Positions 1 through 15,178 of a stretch of DNA of 32,000 nucleotides are shown here, one piece after another. A program made the position numbers and the translations under genes. The first letter of the stretch is position 1, and each line of letters begins with the position of its first letter. The notes below the pieces were generated by a model, which saw only the letters and a program-made list of their open reading frames with translations, had not been told where the DNA came from and searched no databases. Origin of the DNA: Mucisphaera calidilacus (GTDB lineage: Bacteria; Planctomycetota; Phycisphaerae; Phycisphaerales; Phycisphaeraceae); assembly GCF_007748075.1 (NCBI RefSeq), contig NZ_CP036280.1:2130001-2162000 (forward strand), in the 5' to 3' direction.

Positions 1-1121
1 GCCTGGTCCTCGGTGACGCGCTGGATCATCACGCTGTCCCCGCCCGAGAAGAAGGAGCCGAAGAACTTGCCCGAGGCGTCGTCGCCGTCGAACGCCGCGA
101 TGCCCTCGTTGCTCGGTGTCGACTGCGGGAAGGCGTTGCTGAATGCCTTCCAGCCGCCGGTGAAGTTCCCTTCGTCGGGCACACCGAACTCCGGGCCGGG
201 GTCGGGTGTGAAACTTGAGTCGATCAGGAGGTTGTCGCCACGCACGGTCGTCGAGAGATTGCTGTCGAAGGCCGCTGCCTTCTCGGTCACCTTGATGTAA
301 TCGATGTTGGCGTCAATAGCCTGATTCTGCGCCTCCACCGAGGTGGGCTGCAGGCTGGCGTCGTACGCCTCACTGAATCCGGCGTCGGTTGCCCAGATGT
401 TCGCGCGGAGCGTCATCGGATCGTCGGGGACGTTCTCCGTCTCGGTGCGCACGAGCACGTCATCGACGTACCAGTCAACACGATCACGATGCCAATCGAC
501 TCGGTAGGTGTGGTAGGCGCCCAGGTCGGACACGGGTGTCACGAAAGCACCGTCGCCGGTCACGCCGTTGAAGCCTTCTTCGGAATAGATGTTGGTGAAG
601 GGGCGATCCTGACCGGAGACCAGTTCGTTGGTGAGCAGTTCGAAGTCGATCTCGTCGCGGACCGGCTCGTTACTGCTGTCCGAACGGGTCACGTCGTAGG
701 TGAACAGGCCGTTGACGATGCCGCCGACGCCAGCGGGCACGGTGCTCTCGTCGATGCGGGACCGCCACTCGAAGCTCACGCCGCCGCCACGCGCGAAGAC
801 GCGTTTGGAGATCATCTCGTGACCGTGGAAGGCCTCGCCCGGGTCATCGGGGAAGTAGGTATCGAGGGTGAGGGTCGCGTGGCCGTTCTCCTGCTGCGGG
901 GTATTCGCGGCGGGATCGACCTTGGCCTGCGTGCGGCCATAGAACGCGGCCGGCCCGTCGGCGGGCAGACGCCAGTCTTCGTAGGCGACATTGCCCGAGC
1001 CGTTGAACTGATCGTCGAGCAGGACCTGCGGCGCATCGGCGATGGCCAAGGCGGGCAGGCAGCCGAGAAGCGTAAGGGTGAGCAGCGAGCGCGTGGTGTG
1101 TGGATTGTGGGACGCAAGCAT
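1..1121 (-). CDS. Secreted GH16-family beta-glucanase (EIDFE-type active site) with a C-terminal CBM4/9-like module; the 3' end runs off the left edge of the window
   Basis: This ORF is absent from the ORF track because it is open at the window edge. I translated the minus frame by hand from the ATG at 1119-1121. It begins MLASHNPHTTRSLLTLTLLGCLPALAIADAP, which looks like a signal peptide. It contains RDEIDFELLTN, the GH16 ExDxE catalytic motif, with EIDFE at 639-653. It then continues with NLLIDSSFTPDP...GGWKAF, a CBM4/9-like start. I saw no stop codon down to position 3. Confidence 0.8.
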   Translation of the reverse strand, partial: MLASHNPHTTRSLLTLTLLGCLPALAIADAPQVLLDDQFNGSGNVAYEDWRLPADGPAAFYGRTQAKVDPAANTPQQENGHATLTLDTYFPDDPGEAFHGHEMISKRVFARGGGVSFEWRSRIDESTVPAGVGGIVNGLFTYDVTRSDSSNEPVRDEIDFELLTNELVSGQDRPFTNIYSEEGFNGVTGDGAFVTPVSDLGAYHTYRVDWHRDRVDWYVDDVLVRTETENVPDDPMTLRANIWATDAGFSEAYDASLQPTSVEAQNQAIDANIDYIKVTEKAAAFDSNLSTTVRGDNLLIDSSFTPDPGPEFGVPDEGNFTGGWKAFSNAFPQSTPSNEGIAAFDGDDASGKFFGSFFSGGDSVMIQRVTEDQ

Positions 1122-1191
1122 CTCTGTAACCTTTCGGATAATCCGATATTGCTGACACTGTGAAGAACGTAAGAACAGGGTCTTAAACGCT

Positions 1192-1233: not shown

Positions 1234-1914
1234 TCAGCGGCGGCGAATCAGGGCCGCGCCACCAAGAGCCAGCAAGCCTGCGCTGGCCGGTTCGGGGACA
1301 ATGGCGAACGATGCGGCGTCAACACCCACCTGGATGTTGGCGAAGTTGCCGTCGTTGGTGAAGCTCTGGACGGCGAGGACGACCTTGGCGTTCACGGCGT
1401 CGTCCGGGGCCACGGTTTCGTTGGTGTACTTGGCCCAGTCGCCGGTGAGTTGATCCTGCAACTCGATGTTGTTGCGGCTGATCTCGCCGCCAACCGCGTT
1501 GATCCACTCGATGCGGAACTCGAAGACGTTGCCGTCATTGACGAATTCACGGGCCCAGATCGAGAAGGCGTAGAGCTCGCCGCCGACGATGCCGGAGACG
1601 TCCTGAACGTGGCCAGCGAAGGCATCAAAACCCGGCGTCACATCGCCCGCAGCGGGGTTGTTGTTACCGGCGATCCGCAGTAAGAGAGCCTTGTCGCCCT
1701 CGAAGACCTCTGTAGCGGGGAGTTGATCGTTGAAGGCGGCGAGTTGCGTTCCGGGAGGGCCTCCGAAGAAGCCGTTCCAGTTGGTGATGTCGGCGAAGTC
1801 GAAGCCGAGATCGCTTTCGAAACCGGGGTTGTTCAGCATGTTCGCTGAGGCGGCCGACGACAGGCCCGCGAGGGCGACGGCGGCAACAAGGGTAAGGGTG
1901 CTGGTTCTCATCAT
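1234..1914 (-). CDS. Secreted CBM4/9-like carbohydrate-binding module protein with a PEP-CTERM sorting tail
   Basis: This is ORF 1234..1977. I prefer the start at MMRTSTLTLVAAVALAGLSSAASA (1914), which is preceded by GGGAGGAAAAAGAATC (a GGAGG ribosome-binding site). The sequence NMLNNPGFESD resembles a CBM_4_9 start. The C-terminus VPEPASAGLLALGGAALIRRR has the PEP motif, a TM helix and a basic tail. Confidence 0.8.
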   Translation of the reverse strand: MMRTSTLTLVAAVALAGLSSAASANMLNNPGFESDLGFDFADITNWNGFFGGPPGTQLAAFNDQLPATEVFEGDKALLLRIAGNNNPAAGDVTPGFDAFAGHVQDVSGIVGGELYAFSIWAREFVNDGNVFEFRIEWINAVGGEISRNNIELQDQLTGDWAKYTNETVAPDDAVNAKVVLAVQSFTNDGNFANIQVGVDAASFAIVPEPASAGLLALGGAALIRRR

Positions 1915-2017
1915 GATTCTTTTTCCTCCCTGTGCTGGGGCGTCTACGAGACGCTGAAACGGTGTGAATGGGGACATGAACGAGTCACGAAATCACTTGA
2001 TACTTGACTCAACAATA

Positions 2018-3031
2018 CTAGGCCGCGGGTACCGCCGCGGTCGTGCCATTAACCTCAAACCACGCACGGAGCGATTGACCGACGGGTGCCGTGTCGCGGA
2101 TATTCGCGGGCGAGTTGACCAGATCGCTGAGCAACTCGAGCGATACCTTGCCCAGACGCTTGGCGTCCTGGCATACCGCCGACATCTTGGGATAAATCGA
2201 AGATCGCAATTCCGCGTCATCGAAGCCGATCAGCGACAGATGACGCGGTATATCCAGCCCCATGGCCCGTGCCTCGTTCATCGCGCCCAGGCTGGTAAAG
2301 GGGTCGGTGATGAAAATCGCTGTGGGTCGATCCGCCATCGTCATGATCCGGCGGATCAGCTGGCTGCCGCCTTCGAGGTGCGCGGGCGTCTGGATGACCA
2401 GGCGAGGGTCGATCGTCAGGCCGGCGTCGCTGAGCGCCTGCTTGTAGCCCTCGATGCGGTCGCGGTGGTCGGTGTCCTCGACGACGTTGGTCGCGAGCGC
2501 GATGCGTGTGTGGCCCAACTCGATCAAGTGCTCCACGGCTTCGCGGCTGGCGTCGCGCGATTCGTAATCGACGTAGCGGACGTGCTCCCCCTCGAAACGA
2601 TCGCCGACCACGACGGCGGGGAAACCCTCGTCGGCGAGCGACTCGCAGTAATGACGCGTGGACTCGGTGGTCCGCACCACCACGCCGGAGACGCCCTTAC
2701 GCATAAAAAGCTGCGTCAGCGTCTCGCCGGTCTGTCGGGCCTGCCGGGCGTTGAGGACCATCAGGTCAAGTTCGTGCTGCTCCAGCGTCTCGAAAATGCC
2801 CTGGATGATCGAGGCGTCGTAGGGCGAGTCGAGGGTGGTCACGTCGGTATAGACGTAAGCAACGTTCCCGGTCGAGCGACGACCAACGGTGGGAACGTAC
2901 CGCGATTCGTTGGCAACCATGAGGACCTTCTGACGGGCTTCATCGCTGACGCGGGGGTGGTTGTTCAGGACGCGCGAGACGGTCGCCGTGGAAACCCCGG
3001 CCCGCTTCGCGATGTCTCTGACTGATGCCAT
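2018..3031 (-). CDS. LacI-family transcriptional regulator
   Basis: The N-terminal helix-turn-helix is MASVRDIAKRAGVSTATVSRVLNNHPRVSDEARQKV. The rest looks like a periplasmic-binding-protein-like sugar sensor domain. Total length is 337 aa. Confidence 0.9.
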   Translation of the reverse strand: MASVRDIAKRAGVSTATVSRVLNNHPRVSDEARQKVLMVANESRYVPTVGRRSTGNVAYVYTDVTTLDSPYDASIIQGIFETLEQHELDLMVLNARQARQTGETLTQLFMRKGVSGVVVRTTESTRHYCESLADEGFPAVVVGDRFEGEHVRYVDYESRDASREAVEHLIELGHTRIALATNVVEDTDHRDRIEGYKQALSDAGLTIDPRLVIQTPAHLEGGSQLIRRIMTMADRPTAIFITDPFTSLGAMNEARAMGLDIPRHLSLIGFDDAELRSSIYPKMSAVCQDAKRLGKVSLELLSDLVNSPANIRDTAPVGQSLRAWFEVNGTTAAVPAA

Positions 3032-3078: not shown

Positions 3079-3222
3079 TGTAACATATCACACACGGCAA
3101 CGATGTCAATTTGTAACACATAGATTTTTTTGGCGATTTATTCGGCTTTTTATGGATCTGAATCGTGTAACACCATGTAACAATGTATTCTCTCAACTAA
3201 GAGTTCTCCGCTGACCGTTACA
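3079..3222. promoter_or_regulatory. AT-rich divergent control region carrying four direct TGTAACA heptamers and one inverted TGTAAC copy (candidate operator or promoter elements)
   Basis: TGTAACA occurs at 3079-3085, 3112-3118, 3166-3172 and 3176-3182. GTTACA (the inverted copy) occurs at 3217-3222. All lie between the divergent LacI gene and the 1163-aa gene. Confidence 0.5.
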
Positions 3223-3230
3223 GCGTTCTG

Positions 3231-6200
3231 TTGTTCCGGATATCCGCTTCACCCGCTCCGAGTCTCACCATGACCTCCACCCTGCACCGTGACCCGGCCA
3301 CGACATCCGCGACTGCCACAGCGACCTTCGAGCGCGAAGGCCTCTGCAAGCTGGACGGTCTTGATGCCTACGCGATCCCGGACTTTGACCGCCTTCCGCC
3401 CTTTCTGATCAGCCTGCTGAGCGAGGGCGACGTCTGGTGCTATATCTCGAGTCGTTTCGGCCTAACCGCGGGCCGTATCGAGCCCGCCAACTGCCTGTTC
3501 CCCTACTGCACCGACAACGAGCTGCACCTGGTCCACCCGCACACCGGCCCCATCACGACCGGGCACGTGCACCGTGCCGGCCAGCCGCCACGCTTATGGT
3601 CGCCGCTCCGGGACGCGCCTCGCCCCGCCAGCCGACGACGGTTGATCAAGACCGTTCTGGGTGATCGCCTGCTGGCCGAGGAGATCCAAGAAGATCTAGC
3701 CCTGCGTTACTCGATGCGGCTCGCACCGACCGCGACACTCGGCCTTATCCGCACCGTCACCATCGAGAACCTCTCCGCCGGCGACGCGGTGCGGCTTGAC
3801 CTGATGGACGGCTACCTCGGCCTGCTGCCATCGGGCTTCGCGCTGCCGATCCTGAAGAACGGCAGCTGCCTTGTGGATGCCTACACGCAGGCTGAGGTTG
3901 ATCCGGAGACCGGCCTGGCGATCTTCGCCCAGACCGCCGGCATCGTAGACACGCCCAAGCCCTCGGAATCGCTCTACGCCAACATCGCGTGGTCGACGGG
4001 TGCTACGGCTGCGTCCGTCACCCTTGATCACGACCACCTGACGTCGTTCCGCCGCGGCAAGGAACCGGCCAGCACGCGTCTGCTTCAGGGCCGGCGGGGT
4101 GCCTACCTCGTACACCGCCCGATCGATCTGGCCCCGGGTCAGTCCATCGTGTGGCACGTCGTGCTCGACGCGCGGCGCACGCAGACCCAGACCGCGGACG
4201 CTATCACTCGCCTCCACAAGCCAGAGCGGATCACAGAGTTGATCGAGCGATCGCTCACGAGCACCAGCAAGGCCCTGAAGGCCAACGTCGGCAGCACGGA
4301 CGCGTGGCAGGTCACCGGGAGTCCACGCGCTGCGCTGCACCACGCCGCCAATGTTCTGTTCAACAATGCCCGAGGCGGCGTGCCCAACGATGGCTACAAG
4401 GCGCCCCGACACGACGTGCTCGATTTCATCAGCACACGCAACCACGCGGCAGGCCCGGGCTTCGAACGGCTGCTTGGTGACCGGGGGAGCGACGTCGACG
4501 TCCTCGAAATGAAGCGACGCGCCCACGCCGCGGGCAACGCCAGCCTCGCGCGGCTCGCCGACGAGTACCTGCCACTGACTTTCGGCCGGCGTCACGGCGA
4601 CCCGAGTCGTCCCTGGAACCAGTTTGCCATCCGTGTTGCTGACGATCAGGGCAACCCCGTTCTGAATCATCAGGGCAACTGGCGCGACATCTTCCAGAAC
4701 TGGGAAGCGATGACACTGAGCTTCCCCGGCTACCTGCGCTCGATCATCTCCAAGTTCCTCAACGCCACGACCATCGACGGCTTCAACCCCTATCGCATCA
4801 CCCGCGACGGCATCGACTGGGAGCGTCCCAACCCGGATGACCCCTGGGCCCACATCGGCTACTGGGGCGATCACCAGCTCATCTATCTGGTCCGTCTGCT
4901 CGAACAACTCGCGGTGCACGATCCTCATCAACTCGCCGCCATGGCGCGCACCGACTGCTACGCCTTCGCCGACGTGCCCTATCGGCTCGTGACCTACGAC
5001 CGCATCGTCGCCAACCCGCGCGAGACCATTGAGTTCGATGCCGAGCATGACCGAGCGATCGAGCGACGCGTCAAGAGCATGGGAACCGACGCACGCCTGC
5101 TCGGCGACGAACGTGGCGGGATCCTCCACGCCGGGCTCATCGAGAAACTGCTCATTCCGATGCTGAGCAAGCTCTCGGCCCTCGTGCCGGATGGCGGCAT
5201 CTGGATGAACACCCAGCGACCCGAATGGAACGACGCCAACAACGCGCTTGCCGGCTACGGGCTCTCCGTGGTCACCCTCGCCTACCTCCACCGCTACGCG
5301 CGGTTCCTGCGGAAGCTCGTTGAGACGCTTGGCGACGCTCCGATCACGATGAGTCAGCCCCTGGATGCCTGGTTGACGGAGGTCAGCACGAGCCTCGCGG
5401 GGCTAGGCGGGCGCGTAGCCGCGGGTCTCTCCCCAACCGAGCGACGCGCGGTCATGGATCGACTGGGGCGCAGCTTCGAGACCTATCACACCGCGATCAA
5501 CCAGCATGGCCGCGGCGACAGTAAGACCGTCGATCACGCCCGGGTCATCGAGCTGCTCGACCACGCTCTCGACGCGAGCGAACAAGGCCTGCGTGCCAAC
5601 CTCCGCGAGGACGGGCTGATCCACAGCTACAACACACTCCGTCTCGCTGATCACAGCGCGGCGGTCGAACGACTTCCGCTGATGCTCGAGGGCCAGGTGG
5701 CGGCCCTCTCGTCGGGCATCTTCACACCCGATGAGTGCGCTTCGATGCTCGACGTGCTCTTCGCGTCCGATCTCTACCGTGAGGATCAACAGAGCTTCAT
5801 TCTCTATCCACGCCGGACGATGCCCGGCTTCCTCGACAAGGGACGCATCCCGCAGGAAGTCGTGGACGCTACCCCCCTGCTCACGAAACTCGCCCAAGCC
5901 AAGGCGAACTCACTCGTCGAGGCAGACGCCACGGGCACCCTACGTTTCGCCTCCGGACTCGAGAACCACGAAGCCCTCGACCGGGCCATCGACCGACACG
6001 GCTCGCTCTCAACCGAACAACGCGAATCCCTGCACACGGTCTACGAAGGAATCTTCAACCACCACGCCTACACCGGCCGCTCCGGCAGCATGTTCGCTTA
6101 CGAGGGCAACGGCAGCATCTACTGGCACATGGTCTCGAAGCTCCTGCTCGCTGTTCAGGAAGTGCAGATCGCTTCCGAGGATGGCGGTTCCTCGCCCGAA

Positions 6201-6722
6201 ACCAGCCGACGCCTCCGAGCGCACTACGACCGTGTGCGACACGGCATCGGGTTCAACAAGACGGCTTCTGAATACGGCGCTTTCCCGCTCGATCCCTACT
6301 CCCACACGCCACACGGCCGGGGCGCTCAGCAGCCGGGCATGACCGGCCAGGTGAAGGAGGAGATCATCACTCGGCGTGCCGAACTCGGCATCTTCGTGGA
6401 TCGAGGACGCTATCGCTTCGCCCCCGAGAAGGTTCGGTCTGATGAGTGGCTGGATGCCGACACGAGCGTCGCACTCGATACAACCAACGGGATCATCGAA
6501 CGCGAACTCTCCCCCGGGTCACTCGCCTTGACTCTCTGCCAGACGCCGGTCATCTACACCCAGGCCGAAGTTGATGAACCCCTGATCGAGATCCATGCTT
6601 CCGACCAGAGCACCAGGCAGCAGCCGGGGCTTACGCTTTCAGCCGACGACAGCCGGGCCGTCCAGAATCGCGACGGCAGCATCAGGCTCATCATCGTGAA
6701 AACGCCACCACTGAATACCTGA
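3231..6722 (+). CDS. Large cytoplasmic (alpha/alpha)6-type glycoside phosphorylase/hydrolase-like protein; candidate beta-glucan or oligosaccharide phosphorylase of the GH94/GH149/GH161 clan, family unassigned
   Basis: This is a 1163-aa ORF with a TTG start at 3231. An alternative ATG at 3270 begins MTSTLHRD. There is no signal peptide. The motifs GNWRDIFQNW (R485), RPEWNDANNAL (E665) and QPGMTGQ resemble, from memory, the GH94-clan G-x-RD-x-x-QD, DWND and phosphate-site T-G signatures. The gene is flanked by GH16 genes and LacI. Confidence 0.85.
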   Translation: MFRISASPAPSLTMTSTLHRDPATTSATATATFEREGLCKLDGLDAYAIPDFDRLPPFLISLLSEGDVWCYISSRFGLTAGRIEPANCLFPYCTDNELHLVHPHTGPITTGHVHRAGQPPRLWSPLRDAPRPASRRRLIKTVLGDRLLAEEIQEDLALRYSMRLAPTATLGLIRTVTIENLSAGDAVRLDLMDGYLGLLPSGFALPILKNGSCLVDAYTQAEVDPETGLAIFAQTAGIVDTPKPSESLYANIAWSTGATAASVTLDHDHLTSFRRGKEPASTRLLQGRRGAYLVHRPIDLAPGQSIVWHVVLDARRTQTQTADAITRLHKPERITELIERSLTSTSKALKANVGSTDAWQVTGSPRAALHHAANVLFNNARGGVPNDGYKAPRHDVLDFISTRNHAAGPGFERLLGDRGSDVDVLEMKRRAHAAGNASLARLADEYLPLTFGRRHGDPSRPWNQFAIRVADDQGNPVLNHQGNWRDIFQNWEAMTLSFPGYLRSIISKFLNATTIDGFNPYRITRDGIDWERPNPDDPWAHIGYWGDHQLIYLVRLLEQLAVHDPHQLAAMARTDCYAFADVPYRLVTYDRIVANPRETIEFDAEHDRAIERRVKSMGTDARLLGDERGGILHAGLIEKLLIPMLSKLSALVPDGGIWMNTQRPEWNDANNALAGYGLSVVTLAYLHRYARFLRKLVETLGDAPITMSQPLDAWLTEVSTSLAGLGGRVAAGLSPTERRAVMDRLGRSFETYHTAINQHGRGDSKTVDHARVIELLDHALDASEQGLRANLREDGLIHSYNTLRLADHSAAVERLPLMLEGQVAALSSGIFTPDECASMLDVLFASDLYREDQQSFILYPRRTMPGFLDKGRIPQEVVDATPLLTKLAQAKANSLVEADATGTLRFASGLENHEALDRAIDRHGSLSTEQRESLHTVYEGIFNHHAYTGRSGSMFAYEGNGSIYWHMVSKLLLAVQEVQIASEDGGSSPETSRRLRAHYDRVRHGIGFNKTASEYGAFPLDPYSHTPHGRGAQQPGMTGQVKEEIITRRAELGIFVDRGRYRFAPEKVRSDEWLDADTSVALDTTNGIIERELSPGSLALTLCQTPVIYTQAEVDEPLIEIHASDQSTRQQPGLTLSADDSRAVQNRDGSIRLIIVKTPPLNT

Positions 6723-6769: not shown

Positions 6770-8308
6770 ATGTTGCGCATCACACCGCCCCTCCTGCTAC
6801 TCGGCCTCTCCTGCTCGGTGGCCGCCGCCAACGGTCTTGATCGTGAGGGTTTCAACTTCCTCTGGGAAGACCACTTCAACGGTAACAGCCTCGACACCGC
6901 ACGCTGGGAGGCCATCAACCGCCGCGACAGCTACAACAACGAAAAGCAGTACTACCACCCCGACCAGGTGGCGGTCGACAACGGCAATCTCGTCATCACG
7001 ACGACCGACGAGCCGCTCGCCGGCAAGGACTACCGCTCGGGGCTCGTGCGCACCCACACGGAACAGGCGTACGGCCGCTGGGAGGTCCGCGCCGACCTGC
7101 CGACCACCCAAGGCATGTGGCCCGCCATCTGGCTGCTGCCCGACTCCAAGCCATGGCCATCGGGCGGGGAGATCGACATCATGGAAAACCGCGGCAGCGA
7201 GCCGTGGAAGGTCTCCAGCGCCTATCACTGGGGCCCGAGCTGGCCCAGCAACTTCGTCTACGACAGCACCTACGCCACCGGCACGAGTTATCACGACGGC
7301 TTCCACACCTACGCCGTCGAGTGGGAACCCGACCAGATCCGCTACTACGTCGACGACCAGCTCCACTTCACCGTCAACGACTACACCGCGCCGATCTCCA
7401 GCACGCCGATGCACCTGATCATCAACCTCGCCATCGGCGGGGACTATGGCGGCGACCCCAACCACACCACCAGCTTTCCGCAGACGATGGAAGTCGACTA
7501 CGTCCGCGTCTGGGAACTCGACCAGCCCGAACGACCGCCAGCCGTCGCCGAGCAGAACCTGATGCCCGGCAGCACCTTCGAGGCCGAGGACGGTGGGCTT
7601 GATAACTGGCACCCCTTCGGCAGCGAAGCCAGCGTCGGCCTCACCACCGACCACGCTCACCTCGGCGATCAGTCGCTGCGCATCACCGGCTCGGGCGGCG
7701 GCGGAACCAGCTACTCGGGCGTCGCGCAGGGCAGTTATCAGGTGGAACCGGGCCAGAAGATCCGTGTCTCCTCCCACGCCATGATCCCGAGCCTGGACAG
7801 CCTCATCGGCACCGACAACTTCGTCACGATGAAGCTCGAGTTCTACAGCGTCCTCGGGGGCCAATTCTTCTCCGAGGACATGATCTCCTTCATCGAGACC
7901 ACCATCGCCAGCAGCACCAGCGACCTCGACACCTGGTTGCTCAACACCCTCGAAGCCACCGTTCCCGAAGGCGCCGTCGAGACGCGCCTCGCCTTCGTCT
8001 TCGTCCAGAACGACGGTGCGCCCGGAACGGTCTACATCGACGACGCGACCCTTCAGGTCCTCCGCGACGCCGACCCCGGCGACGCCAACGCCGACGGAGA
8101 AGTCAACCTCCTCGACCTCTCCGCACTTGCCAGCAACTTCGGCGGCACCGGCGCATGGGTCCAAGGCGACTTCAACGCCGACGGCAACGTCGACCTGCTC
8201 GACCTCTCCCTCCTCGCCTCGGGCTTCAACACCGACGCCGTCCCCACCCCCGGCAGCGCGATGCTCCTGCTCGCGTCATTCGCCGGCGTCTCAAGACGCT
8301 CGCTCTGA
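6770..8308 (+). CDS. Secreted GH16 laminarinase-type beta-1,3(4)-glucanase with CBM4/9-like module, dockerin-like repeat pair and variant PEP-CTERM tail
   Basis: The signal peptide is MLRITPPLLLLGLSCSVAAANG. The sequence WPAIWLLP...GGEIDIMENRG carries the catalytic EIDIME motif at 7169-7186. NLMPGSTFEAEDGGLDNW resembles a CBM start. The dockerin-like pair is DANADGEVNLLDLSALASNFG...GDFNADGNVDLLDLSLLASGF. The tail is VPTPGSAMLLLASFAGVSRRSL. Confidence 0.9.
   Translation: MLRITPPLLLLGLSCSVAAANGLDREGFNFLWEDHFNGNSLDTARWEAINRRDSYNNEKQYYHPDQVAVDNGNLVITTTDEPLAGKDYRSGLVRTHTEQAYGRWEVRADLPTTQGMWPAIWLLPDSKPWPSGGEIDIMENRGSEPWKVSSAYHWGPSWPSNFVYDSTYATGTSYHDGFHTYAVEWEPDQIRYYVDDQLHFTVNDYTAPISSTPMHLIINLAIGGDYGGDPNHTTSFPQTMEVDYVRVWELDQPERPPAVAEQNLMPGSTFEAEDGGLDNWHPFGSEASVGLTTDHAHLGDQSLRITGSGGGGTSYSGVAQGSYQVEPGQKIRVSSHAMIPSLDSLIGTDNFVTMKLEFYSVLGGQFFSEDMISFIETTIASSTSDLDTWLLNTLEATVPEGAVETRLAFVFVQNDGAPGTVYIDDATLQVLRDADPGDANADGEVNLLDLSALASNFGGTGAWVQGDFNADGNVDLLDLSLLASGFNTDAVPTPGSAMLLLASFAGVSRRSL
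8081..8305 (+). other. Dockerin-like EF-hand repeat pair (8081-8230) plus PEP-CTERM-like tail (8241-8305) within the GH16 CDS
   Basis: Two D-x-N-x-D-G-x-V-(N/D)-LLDL repeats are followed by VPTPGS, a hydrophobic helix and RRS. Confidence 0.7.
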
Positions 8309-12599: not shown

Positions 12600-13982
12600 A
12601 TGCTCTTCAACTCCGTTGACTACCTGATCTATCTGCCGCTGGTCTGCTGGGTCTATTACGCCCTGCCGCGCAGCGGCCGCAGCCTCTTCCTGATCGGGAT
12701 GAGCTACCTTTTCTACTGGTGGTGGAGCATCCCCCTCTCGTTGCTACTCGTCTTCTCGACCGTCGTCGATTACTCCGCCGCCCTCATCATCGACAACGCC
12801 CGGCACACGCTCACGAGGCGACTCGCCCTGCTCGCCTCACTCACCGCGAATCTGGGCATGCTCGCCCTGTTCAAGTATGCCGATTTCTTCGTCACGTCCG
12901 TTAACACCGCTCTCGACCAGAGCCTTCTGCCCACGCTCAATCTTGTCCTGCCCCTTGGCATCAGCTTCTACACCTTCCAGACCATGAGTTACACCATCGA
13001 CGTCTTCCGCGGTCAGTTGCGTGCCTCGCGCAATCCGCTCGACGTTGCGCTCTACGTCTGCTTCTTCCCCCAACTCGTCGCCGGGCCGATCGTCCGTGCC
13101 GACACGCTCATCCCCCAGTTCCGAAAGCACCCCGAGGCCGACTGGCAGCAGGTGCGCTCGGGCATCGCTCAGATCCTCTGGGGGTTGGCCAAGAAGGTCT
13201 ACATCGCCGACAGCATGGCACACGTTGCCAACGAGGCCTACAGCAATCCCGGACAGATGTCCGGGCTGGCTCTTGTCTTCGCCACCTACGCCTTCGCCGT
13301 CCAGATCTACTGCGACTTCTCCGGGTACAGCGACATCGCCATCGGCTCCGCACGCATTCTCGGCTTCGAACTGCCCGTCAACTTCCGTTCCCCCTACCTC
13401 GCCTGCTCCATCCGGGAGTTCTGGCGTCGCTGGCACATCTCCCTCTCCACCTGGCTCCGCGATTACCTCTATATCCCGCTCGGCGGCAACCGAGGCACCC
13501 TGCTCCGGACCCAGGTCAACATCATGATCACCATGCTCCTCGGCGGCCTCTGGCACGGTGCCGGCTGGAACTGGGTCGTGTGGGGTGGGCTCCAGGGGCT
13601 CTTTATGATCGCGGAGCGTCTCTCGGGCATGAGCGAACAGCACCCGCCGCAGCTTTTCTGGAAACTGACACGCTGGCTCGTGACCTTCCACCTCGTCTGC
13701 GTCTCCTGGGTTCTCTTCCGAGCCGCCAATCTTGACGACGCCCTCGTCGTCTTCGAGCGCATCGCCACCCTGGCCGACGGACTCAGCTTCGACCTCACCC
13801 GGCCCGCGGCGGCGCTTGCCATCCTGCTCCTGGCCGAGTTGATCGACGTCCGCAGGCACGTCACCGGCTGGATCCAGCGGTCGCCTACCACCTGCCTGTG
13901 GGTCACGCTCGCCGCCATCCTCATCCTGATCCTCACCTACAAGGACGCTACGAACCCCGAGTTCATCTACTTCCAGTTCTGA
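12600..13982 (+). CDS. MBOAT-family membrane O-acyltransferase (AlgI/DltB/PatA-like)
   Basis: The protein is 460 aa and polytopic. It contains FYTFQTMSYTIDV, and FWRRWHISLSTWLRDYLYIPLGGNR holds the conserved MBOAT His. Confidence 0.9.
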   Translation: MLFNSVDYLIYLPLVCWVYYALPRSGRSLFLIGMSYLFYWWWSIPLSLLLVFSTVVDYSAALIIDNARHTLTRRLALLASLTANLGMLALFKYADFFVTSVNTALDQSLLPTLNLVLPLGISFYTFQTMSYTIDVFRGQLRASRNPLDVALYVCFFPQLVAGPIVRADTLIPQFRKHPEADWQQVRSGIAQILWGLAKKVYIADSMAHVANEAYSNPGQMSGLALVFATYAFAVQIYCDFSGYSDIAIGSARILGFELPVNFRSPYLACSIREFWRRWHISLSTWLRDYLYIPLGGNRGTLLRTQVNIMITMLLGGLWHGAGWNWVVWGGLQGLFMIAERLSGMSEQHPPQLFWKLTRWLVTFHLVCVSWVLFRAANLDDALVVFERIATLADGLSFDLTRPAAALAILLLAELIDVRRHVTGWIQRSPTTCLWVTLAAILILILTYKDATNPEFIYFQF

Positions 13983-13984
13983 TC

Positions 13985-15178
13985 ATGAAACGCATGCTCA
14001 CACCGGCATTGAAACTCCTCTGGCAGCAGCGCATCGCGCTGATCACCGCCCTGCTGCTGCTGCTCGTTGGGGAATTGACCCTTCGAACCCTCGCCCCGGA
14101 GTACACCAACCGGGTCTACGACGCCTACTACACCGGCGGACACCCCATCAACACCTCTGCCGACGACACGCGCGGACGCCCGCTCGATGAATCAGCACGC
14201 AATGCAAACGTGCGCATCCTCGCGCTGGGCGATTCCGTCTCCTTCGGCACCGGTGTCGCCGAAAGCGATACCTGGCCACGACAACTCGAAGCCCGCCTCG
14301 AAAACCGTGCCGTCGACGCCGCCGTCCTCAACACCAGCCGCCCCGGGCTCGACCTCGATCAGGCACGCCTGCTCCTCGAAGATCGCTTCACCGAGTACCG
14401 GCCCACTCACGTCGCCGTCGTGGTCTCGGGAAACATGGTGTCACTCGCGTGGATCCGCCAGCACGACGAACCCCGCCTGCCCGACGTTCAGCCCCAACGA
14501 ACCGCCCCCGACGCCTCACTCAAGAGCCGGCTCAGGCGTGCCTACCACCAGTTCGCGCTGCCCGGTTTCTTGACGATCAACATCGAACGCTTCACCTACG
14601 CCATCGGCCTCCGCGTCCACAACGTTGACCCCCAAGCCCCCTTCGGATCGCTACTCGCCTACGGCTACCGGCAGAACGACCTCGACCCCGGGACACCCGC
14701 CGAGGCATGGTCCCTCCTCGCCGCGCAGATTGACCGCCTGAACCGGTCCTGCAACCGCATCGGGGCAAAGCTCCTGCTCGCCTACGCACCCAGCGAGTTT
14801 GCCCTGAATGAGAACTGGATCAACAACCTCAAATCCGTGCCGCGTGCGCGACTGACGCTCGATCCCGAGGAACAACTGAGTCTCTCGGCCGCCAGGATCG
14901 ATCCGTCCGTCACCTTCATCCCGCTCCACCAAGCGCTGGCCGATGCCGCCCACAAGGATGGTCTCTACATCCTCAACGACTACACGCACTTCAATCCTCG
15001 GGGCCACAGCGTGATCGCCGAGAGGTTCTCAGAGCATTTTGGCGCATCAACGCAACCCCTCACCGCCGACGCATCACACCGCCGATCACAGCCAGCCCCA
15101 GCAGGCCAGCCGGCTCGGGCACAGTCGTCTGACCGAAGTGACTCGCCAGGATCGACAGGTCCAGCAGGTCGACGCTGA
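13985..15178 (+). CDS. Membrane-anchored SGNH/GDSL-family hydrolase (acetyltransferase/esterase partner of the MBOAT)
   Basis: The ATG at 13985 lies 2 nt after the MBOAT stop and begins MKRMLTPALKLLWQQRIALITALLLLLVG (a TM anchor). ILALGDSVSFGTG is the GDS block I. DYTHFNPRGH is the DxxH block V. The last ~40 codons overlap the convergent gene. Confidence 0.8.
   Translation: MKRMLTPALKLLWQQRIALITALLLLLVGELTLRTLAPEYTNRVYDAYYTGGHPINTSADDTRGRPLDESARNANVRILALGDSVSFGTGVAESDTWPRQLEARLENRAVDAAVLNTSRPGLDLDQARLLLEDRFTEYRPTHVAVVVSGNMVSLAWIRQHDEPRLPDVQPQRTAPDASLKSRLRRAYHQFALPGFLTINIERFTYAIGLRVHNVDPQAPFGSLLAYGYRQNDLDPGTPAEAWSLLAAQIDRLNRSCNRIGAKLLLAYAPSEFALNENWINNLKSVPRARLTLDPEEQLSLSAARIDPSVTFIPLHQALADAAHKDGLYILNDYTHFNPRGHSVIAERFSEHFGASTQPLTADASHRRSQPAPAGQPARAQSSDRSDSPGSTGPAGRR

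Follow-up and report, generated by a model that had tools for sequence, protein, structure and literature searches.

We analysed a 32-kb stretch of the genome of the planctomycete Mucisphaera calidilacus (contig NZ_CP036280.1, positions 2,130,001 to 2,162,000; hereafter the window, with a G+C content of 63.8%), whose longest open reading frame (ORF) encodes a protein that is deposited under the name 'hypothetical protein'. We found that this protein is a member of glycoside hydrolase (GH) family 149 and is neither unclassified nor a member of GH161 or GH94. It is very probably a cytoplasmic beta-1,3-glucan (laminari-oligosaccharide) phosphorylase and an orthologue of Pro_7066 and of Euglena EgP1, an enzyme type that we take to correspond to EC 2.4.1.97. 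A first-pass annotation of the same DNA had described the protein as an unclassified beta-glucan or oligosaccharide phosphorylase of the GH94 clan and as a candidate for a new family. Its guess at the function was correct and its claim of novelty was wrong: the protein belongs, as a further planctomycetal representative, to the known family GH149, for which beta-1,3-glucan phosphorylase activity has been shown biochemically with Pro_7066 and EgP1 (PMC5827456).

Family assignment and domain architecture

The ORF occupies positions 3231..6722 of the plus strand, from a TTG start to a stop codon at 6720-6722, and comprises 1163 codons; the second-longest ORF in the window has 695 amino acids (aa), which agrees with the earlier description of the gene as the largest one present. 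Because a 100% identical M. calidilacus protein of 1150 aa has been deposited with the ATG at position 3270 as its start, and because homology to relatives starts only at about residue 25-39 of the ORF, the figure of 1163 aa describes the maximal ORF and not necessarily the protein. Two residue numberings are therefore used, TTG numbering for the maximal ORF (from 3231) and ATG numbering for the deposited protein (from 3270), with an offset of 13, so that D668 (TTG) is D655 (ATG). Inspection of the N-terminus (MTSTLHRDPATTSATATATFEREGL) revealed no hydrophobic signal-peptide core, and the prediction that the enzyme lacks a signal peptide holds.

The protein matched the NCBIfam equivalog NF058639.1 ('GH149_beta_1_3', 1,3-beta-D-glucan phosphorylase, GH149 family) with 1257.4 bits and thus passed the curated cut-off of 1150; the match extends from residue 39 to residue 1157 of the protein and takes in positions 10-1132 of the 1134 in the profile. 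In a phmmer search of PDB sequences, Pro_7066 (6hq6/6hq8) was the top match with E = 1.2e-245, aligning residues 8-1156 with 16-1167. In the alignment to 6hq6, no large gap interrupts chain regions 389-447 and 871-957, the two inserts by which GH149 differs from GH94 (the chain numbering of 6hq6 in the PDB equals the native numbering plus 19, as derived from the printed alignment). GH161 and other PDB chains were matched in fragments only, with E ~5e-12 for the three short fragments that aligned to the GH161 chains 9qqk/9h8v, and no GH94 chain was found among the phmmer matches to the PDB at E <= 10. No Pfam family was matched by the protein, even with the threshold relaxed to E <= 1. This lack of a Pfam match is no sign of novelty, and the label 'hypothetical' or 'unclassified' probably arose because Pfam contains no GH149 model.

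Structure prediction and a Foldseek comparison with known phosphorylase structures, which the first-pass annotation had proposed as a check, led to the same family. We built an AlphaFold2 monomer model from an alignment of 36 homologues (mean predicted local distance difference test score, pLDDT, 80; predicted template modelling score 0.73), in which an N-terminal beta-sandwich is followed by a helical linker, a large helical domain and a C-terminal beta-domain. Foldseek against the PDB placed the GH149 entries 6hq8/6hq6 at the top (E = 8e-90, with 1140 columns aligned at 37% identity), followed by GH161 (E = 1e-35, 14-15% identity, template modelling score 0.39) and GH94, with laminaribiose phosphorylase at E = 1e-24, the remaining GH94 enzymes weaker, and 8-13% identity. 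The global template modelling score to 6hq6 was 0.59 with a large root-mean-square deviation, which is probably due to domain placement in the monomer model, and only the Foldseek ranking and the alignment were used.

The likeness to Pro_7066 extends over the full length of the protein, in a collinear alignment with the same domain order and with no signal peptide in either enzyme; the RD, EWND, YEG...YWH and QPGMTGQ blocks are identical, and both genes are associated with genes for beta-1,3-glucan degradation. The catalytic domain of the M. calidilacus enzyme (at about aa 343-1038) includes equivalents of both GH149-specific inserts, Dom 1 and Dom 2. By contrast, GH161 PapP (PDB 9gy9, 9qqk) and the GH94 enzyme PsLBP (PDB 6ggy) share the clan-level fold and the catalytic W-N-D loop and also act on beta-1,3-gluco-oligosaccharides, but the resemblance in sequence is fragmentary, the structural matches (1e-35 and 1e-24) come with 12-15% identity, and the protein has no Pfam GH94-type domain. 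We therefore rejected membership of GH161, for which the sequence matches are fragmentary and the fold match is far weaker than to 6hq6/6hq8, and membership of GH94, to which, with neither a Pfam nor a phmmer match, there is likeness at the level of the fold only. Membership of GH149 is established by the equivalog score and by the full-length alignment to 6HQ6 (E = 1e-245), which contradict the claim of an unclassified protein or a new family; the GH94-clan phosphorylase foreseen in the first-pass annotation is supported by the same data and by Foldseek, and of the two families that it named as candidates, GH149 was right and GH161 was not.

Homologues of the protein number in the thousands. 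In a collection of 5.8 billion proteins, the nearest relatives are 54% identical and come from a Phycisphaeraceae metagenome-assembled genome and a Mucisphaera sp.; all others are at most 48% identical. The founding GH149 paper discusses Proteobacteria and Bacteroidetes (PMC5827456), whereas the host here is a planctomycete, and a paper on the comparative genomics of Phycisphaerae does not mention GH149 or laminarin (PMC11266412).

Conservation of the active site

In the crystal structure of Pro_7066, the active site contains W651-N652-D653, of which D653 is predicted to be catalytic; R470/D471 recognise the sugar 1-phosphate, H959 recognises phosphate, and E951 touches a ligand mimicking the donor sugar (PMC6771811). 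Each of these residues is matched by an identical one in the M. calidilacus protein, namely W653-N654-D655, R472/D473, H953 and E945 (ATG numbering), and these, like the Glu of EWND, are invariant in 36 homologues with 43-54% identity. The conservation of the active-site residues is thereby established in the sequence alignment.

Three motifs had been read by eye in the earlier analysis, and all of them exist. GNWRDIFQNW comprises aa 482-491 (TTG numbering; 4674-4703) and starts at 4674, one codon before the position of 4677 that had been given for it; RPEWNDANNAL (aa 663-673, TTG numbering) lies exactly at 5217-5249 as described; and QPGMTGQ (aa 1034-1040, TTG numbering; 6330-6350) is found near the C-terminus. 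Because all three lie within blocks that are invariant across the 36 homologues, they are not chance matches, and the Pro_7066 sequence also contains RPEWNDANNAL and QPGMTGQ.

The one residue-level anomaly that had been suspected, a Glu in place of the catalytic Asp, arose because the wrong residue was aligned. In GH94, the catalytic Asp stands two positions past a conserved Trp, as in the cellobiose phosphorylase of C. gilvus with W488/D490 (Table S3, PMC5827456). The final D of (D/E)-W-N-D, and not the first residue, serves as the catalytic acid in GH94 as well as in GH149, and D655 is present here; E652, which had been taken for the catalytic position, precedes W653. Because Pro_7066 also has EWND and the Glu does not vary among GH149 homologues, EWND is the normal GH149 motif and not a deviation. 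The predicted catalytic machinery is intact, and we see no reason for suspecting a hydrolase.

As a separate observation on the AlphaFold2 monomer model, its least confident parts are the most conserved, invariant segments of the active site. A shallow alignment of 36 sequences and loops that are ordered only in a dimer are both possible reasons for the low pLDDT of these loops.

Gene neighbourhood and candidate operator

The gene neighbourhood, established from the genes of the window (Table 1), is that of a small gene cluster for laminarin use, of a familiar type. As noted in the first-pass annotation, the GH149 gene is divergent from a gene for a LacI-family regulator, and a secreted GH16 laminarinase-type enzyme is encoded directly downstream. 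The downstream GH16 gene starts 47 nucleotides past the stop codon of the GH149 gene, and a scan for terminators between the two found no terminator-like site; because of the short gap without such a site, both genes are probably in one operon. The encoded enzyme shows the E-x-D-x-x-E motif of GH16 (EIDIME), and its best PDB relatives are laminarinases/beta-1,3-glucanases (4e-37). In Pfam, it has a weak CBM_4_9 match (a CBM4_9-like region) and a Dockerin_1 match (a dockerin-type repeat), and its C-terminus is PEP-CTERM-like (VPTPGSAMLLLASFAGVSRRSL). The dockerin-type repeat and the PEP-CTERM-like tail suggest that this GH16 is held at the cell surface rather than freely secreted.

Table 1. Features of the GH149 locus in the 32-kb window (positions in nucleotides unless given as aa; residue numbers in ATG numbering unless marked).
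Feature	Position	Strand	Evidence and remarks
GH149 gene, very probable beta-1,3-glucan phosphorylase	3270..6722	+	1150 aa; NF058639.1, 6hq6 alignment, deposited protein, Foldseek
N-terminal beta-sandwich domain	3339..4181	+	aa 24-304 = Pro_7066 1-303; strand-rich in AlphaFold2 model; PMC6771811
Helical linker	aa 305-342	+	precedes catalytic domain; AlphaFold2 model
(alpha/alpha)6 catalytic domain	4296..6383	+	~aa 343-1038; AlphaFold2 helices, 6hq6 alignment, PMC6771811
RD motif R472-D473 (R485/D486 from TTG)	4683..4688	+	= Pro_7066 R470/D471
W653-N654-D655 catalytic loop	5226..5234	+	D655 (5232-5234) = Pro_7066 D653, predicted catalytic acid
E945...H953, YEG...YWH block	6102..6128	+	= Pro_7066 E951 and H959; invariant in 36 homologues
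QPGMTGQ block	6330..6350	+	same in Pro_7066; invariant in family: Q, P, G, T, G, Q
C-terminal jelly-roll domain	6390..6704	+	aa 1041-1145 = Pro_7066 1046-1156; AlphaFold2 model, PMC6771811, alignment
Secreted GH16, laminarinase-type endo-beta-1,3-glucanase	6770..8308	+	Pfam GH16 1.4e-25, signal peptide, EIDIME motif
Second GH16 gene, N-terminal 373 aa	3..1121	-	signal peptide, DEIDFE motif, Pfam GH16 8e-17
Secreted 247-aa protein	1234..1977	-	PEP-CTERM-like C-terminal anchor VPEPASAGLLALGGAALIRRR; downstream of lacI
LacI-family transcriptional regulator	2018..3031	-	divergent from GH149 gene; Pfam LacI helix-turn-helix and Peripla_BP_3/1
TGTAAC(A)/GTTACA half-site cluster	3079..3222	not assigned	LacI-GH149 intergenic region; candidate operator/promoter region

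A second GH16 gene on the other side of the locus continues beyond the left edge of the window; its PDB relatives are weak matches to 1,3-1,4-beta-glucanases only (1e-9), and it is not clearly a laminarinase. A plus-strand ORF at 489..1163 (224 aa) was rejected as a gene and is an antisense shadow of this minus-strand GH16. Between the second GH16 and the regulator lies the gene for a secreted 247-aa protein that has no Pfam domain above threshold and whose PEP-CTERM match (E = 0.005) is below the cut-off.

We compared the locus with 83 GH149 loci from many phyla, for which a stretch of up to 10 kb on either side of the gene was fetched. A GH16 homologue is present in 41 of the 83 loci, which makes the pairing a common one, and a LacI homologue in 19. 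The metagenomic loci L082/L083, which surround the 54% identical GH149 homologue (the closest metagenomic relative), have the same arrangement as the window: a GH16 gene, a small protein and a LacI regulator, divergent from GH149. In these loci, the LacI orthologue is 75% identical and stands in the same position beside the GH149 gene, a 61% identical homologue of the 247-aa protein is located at the same place between GH16 and LacI, and L082 has a GH16-dockerin gene at the position that matches the second GH16. L008 and L022 have further homologues of the 247-aa protein (31-34% identical) close to their LacI orthologues. The 247-aa protein is thus a conserved partner of the locus and, as a matter of speculation, may be a glycan-binding partner at the cell surface.

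TGTAAC(A)/GTTACA half-sites are clustered in the intergenic region between the LacI and GH149 genes. TGTAACA occurs four times in the window, compared with 0.45 expected, and each time within positions 3079-3182 of this region, and further half-sites are found at 3217 (GTTACA) and just upstream of the start of the second GH16 (TGTAAC at 1125-1130). In L082, the orthologous intergenic region (7733-7900) has four half-sites and a perfect palindrome, TGTAACGCGCGTTACA. Half-sites also occur beside LacI orthologues in L003 (3513-3721), L008 (14925) and L022 (16958-18270), so that such half-sites recur in four other planctomycete loci. A search of the LacI-GH149 intergenic region of the window for the full 16-bp palindromic operator with <= 2 mismatches found none, and half-sites only. 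We consider the TGTAAC/GTTACA half-sites a candidate for the operator that this LacI orthogroup recognises; LacI probably regulates the cluster through operators of the TGTAAC type, a step for which the support is motif evidence only.

The founding paper already described clusters in which GH149 occurs with LacI regulators and others with extracellular GH16 enzymes; there, Type I clusters have an ABC transporter and a LacI/AraC regulator and Type II clusters have a TonB receptor, GH16/GH17 and a major facilitator superfamily (MFS) transporter (PMC5827456). Polysaccharide utilisation loci (PULs) for laminarin in Bacteroidetes also contain GH149 (PMC5827456; PMC10108472), and in bloom metagenomics the GH149-GH16 pair serves as a signature of laminarin PULs (PMC10108472). 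The M. calidilacus locus resembles Type I clusters in the LacI-type regulator beside GH149, and it resembles Type II clusters and the Bacteroidetes PULs in the extracellular GH16. Whereas the published clusters carry ABC, TonB/MFS or SusCD systems, the window has no ABC, MFS, TonB, SusCD or GH3/GH17/GH30 genes; in their place, it encodes two GH16 enzymes and a secreted protein with a PEP-CTERM tag. The locus is a planctomycete-style variant of the GH149 cluster, which is seen also in L082/L083.

Other genes of the window encode DinB, MBOAT, GDSL, RNase H, peptidases, DapF and more. Unrelated to the GH149 locus, a gene for an MBOAT-family membrane O-acyltransferase is followed by one for a GDSL-like lipase/acylhydrolase (12600-15178), a pair that looks like a polysaccharide O-acylation module.

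Proposed pathway and alternative readings

We infer a pathway whose cutting, import and phosphorolysis steps come from knowledge of the enzyme families. Secreted and probably surface-anchored GH16 endo-glucanases, whose genes lie on either side of the GH149 gene, would cut laminarin-type beta-1,3-glucan to oligosaccharides outside the cell, and these would be imported by a transporter encoded outside the window. In the cytoplasm, the GH149 enzyme would use inorganic phosphate to take off glucose stepwise from the non-reducing end by the inverting mechanism of the GH94 clan, with D655 in the W-N-D loop acting as the general acid and with R472/D473, E945 and H953 holding the glucosyl and phosphate moieties. 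The products would be alpha-glucose 1-phosphate and a chain one unit shorter, and because phosphorolysis of one unit would yield alpha-glucose 1-phosphate directly, no ATP would be spent on phosphorylating that glucose. Expression would be gated by the LacI repressor, probably through operators of the TGTAAC type in the intergenic region that the two genes share. Activity itself, chain-length preference, uptake route and regulation are likewise what we infer for this enzyme.

Several observations weigh against the assignment as a beta-1,3-glucan phosphorylase of the Pro_7066 type. The score for NF058639.1 exceeds the cut-off by a margin of only ~9%, and the activity is assigned from sequence in a family in which the biochemically assayed enzymes are only Pro_7066 and EgP1, none of them planctomycetal. 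The protein is at most 54% identical to any other sequence and ~37% identical to Pro_7066, the sole crystallised member, whose surface oligosaccharide-binding residues E990/Y993/E994 read A/D/R here. This surface site was already noted to be poorly conserved in distant bacterial GH149 sequences (PMC6771811); given the A/D/R residues, the M. calidilacus enzyme may handle long chains differently from Pro_7066. Because the AlphaFold2 model has pLDDT < 50 in four active-site segments (437-475, 649-659, 933-945 and 1000-1025, ATG numbering), the active-site residues were assigned from the sequence alignment to the crystal structure. Finally, no sugar transporter, beta-glucosidase or phosphoglucomutase was found among the genes of the window, and the pathway around the GH149 enzyme is therefore incomplete here.

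The isolation of the planctomycetal lineage, the changed surface site and the small number of characterised enzymes (only two), together with a second GH16 that is not clearly a laminarinase, would also suit a phosphorylase of the GH149 fold with another substrate: a different beta-linked glycan, branched beta-1,3/1,6-oligosaccharides only, or, with a strict preference, disaccharides. We consider this improbable, because the equivalog-level cut-off was passed, every residue of the -1 subsite and of the phosphate site is identical, and the adjoining GH16 is laminarinase-like. There is a similarly small chance that the enzyme has a specificity, in substrate or chain length, unlike that of both characterised GH149 enzymes, or that the locus represents a planctomycete-specific mode of beta-glucan capture and import under LacI and a TGTAAC-N4-GTTACA operator, an idea that draws on the distance in sequence, the missing Pro_7066 surface site, the locus without a transporter and the PEP-CTERM-anchored GH16 enzymes. 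That the enzyme works mainly in the synthetic direction in vivo, and turns glucose 1-phosphate into a beta-1,3-glucan reserve in the cytoplasm or into a primer for the dense extracellular matrix of the organism, is very improbable: in vitro, GH149 enzymes run freely in both directions and extend chains to a degree of polymerisation of 11-12 (PMC5827456), and M. calidilacus produces an extracellular matrix that is viscous (PMC8882080), but secreted endo-glucanases and a sugar-responsive LacI-type regulator flank the gene in a catabolic arrangement, with no genes for glucan export or a glucan synthase adjoining. That the protein has hydrolase activity or founds a new family is hardly credible, a reading for which the by-eye alignment of EWND with DWND is the only argument; it is already refuted at the level of sequence by the Asp at the end of W-N-D, by the same EWND in a proven phosphorylase, Pro_7066, by the conserved phosphate-recognition His and by the curated family threshold. 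The preferred assignment thus remains that of a cytoplasmic GH149 phosphorylase of beta-1,3-gluco-oligosaccharides.

Much of this is already known at the level of the family: publications of 2018-2019 described GH149, how its enzymes work and that they are paired with GH16 laminarinases, and marine metagenomics now uses GH149 as a routine marker for laminarin loci. For the reading of motifs, the lesson is that 'Glu replaces catalytic Asp' came from a misaligned motif residue. The significance of the result beyond annotation is slight; it allows a deposited 'hypothetical' protein to be named with confidence as a GH149 beta-1,3-glucan phosphorylase, and laminarin use thereby joins the predicted abilities of Mucisphaera calidilacus.

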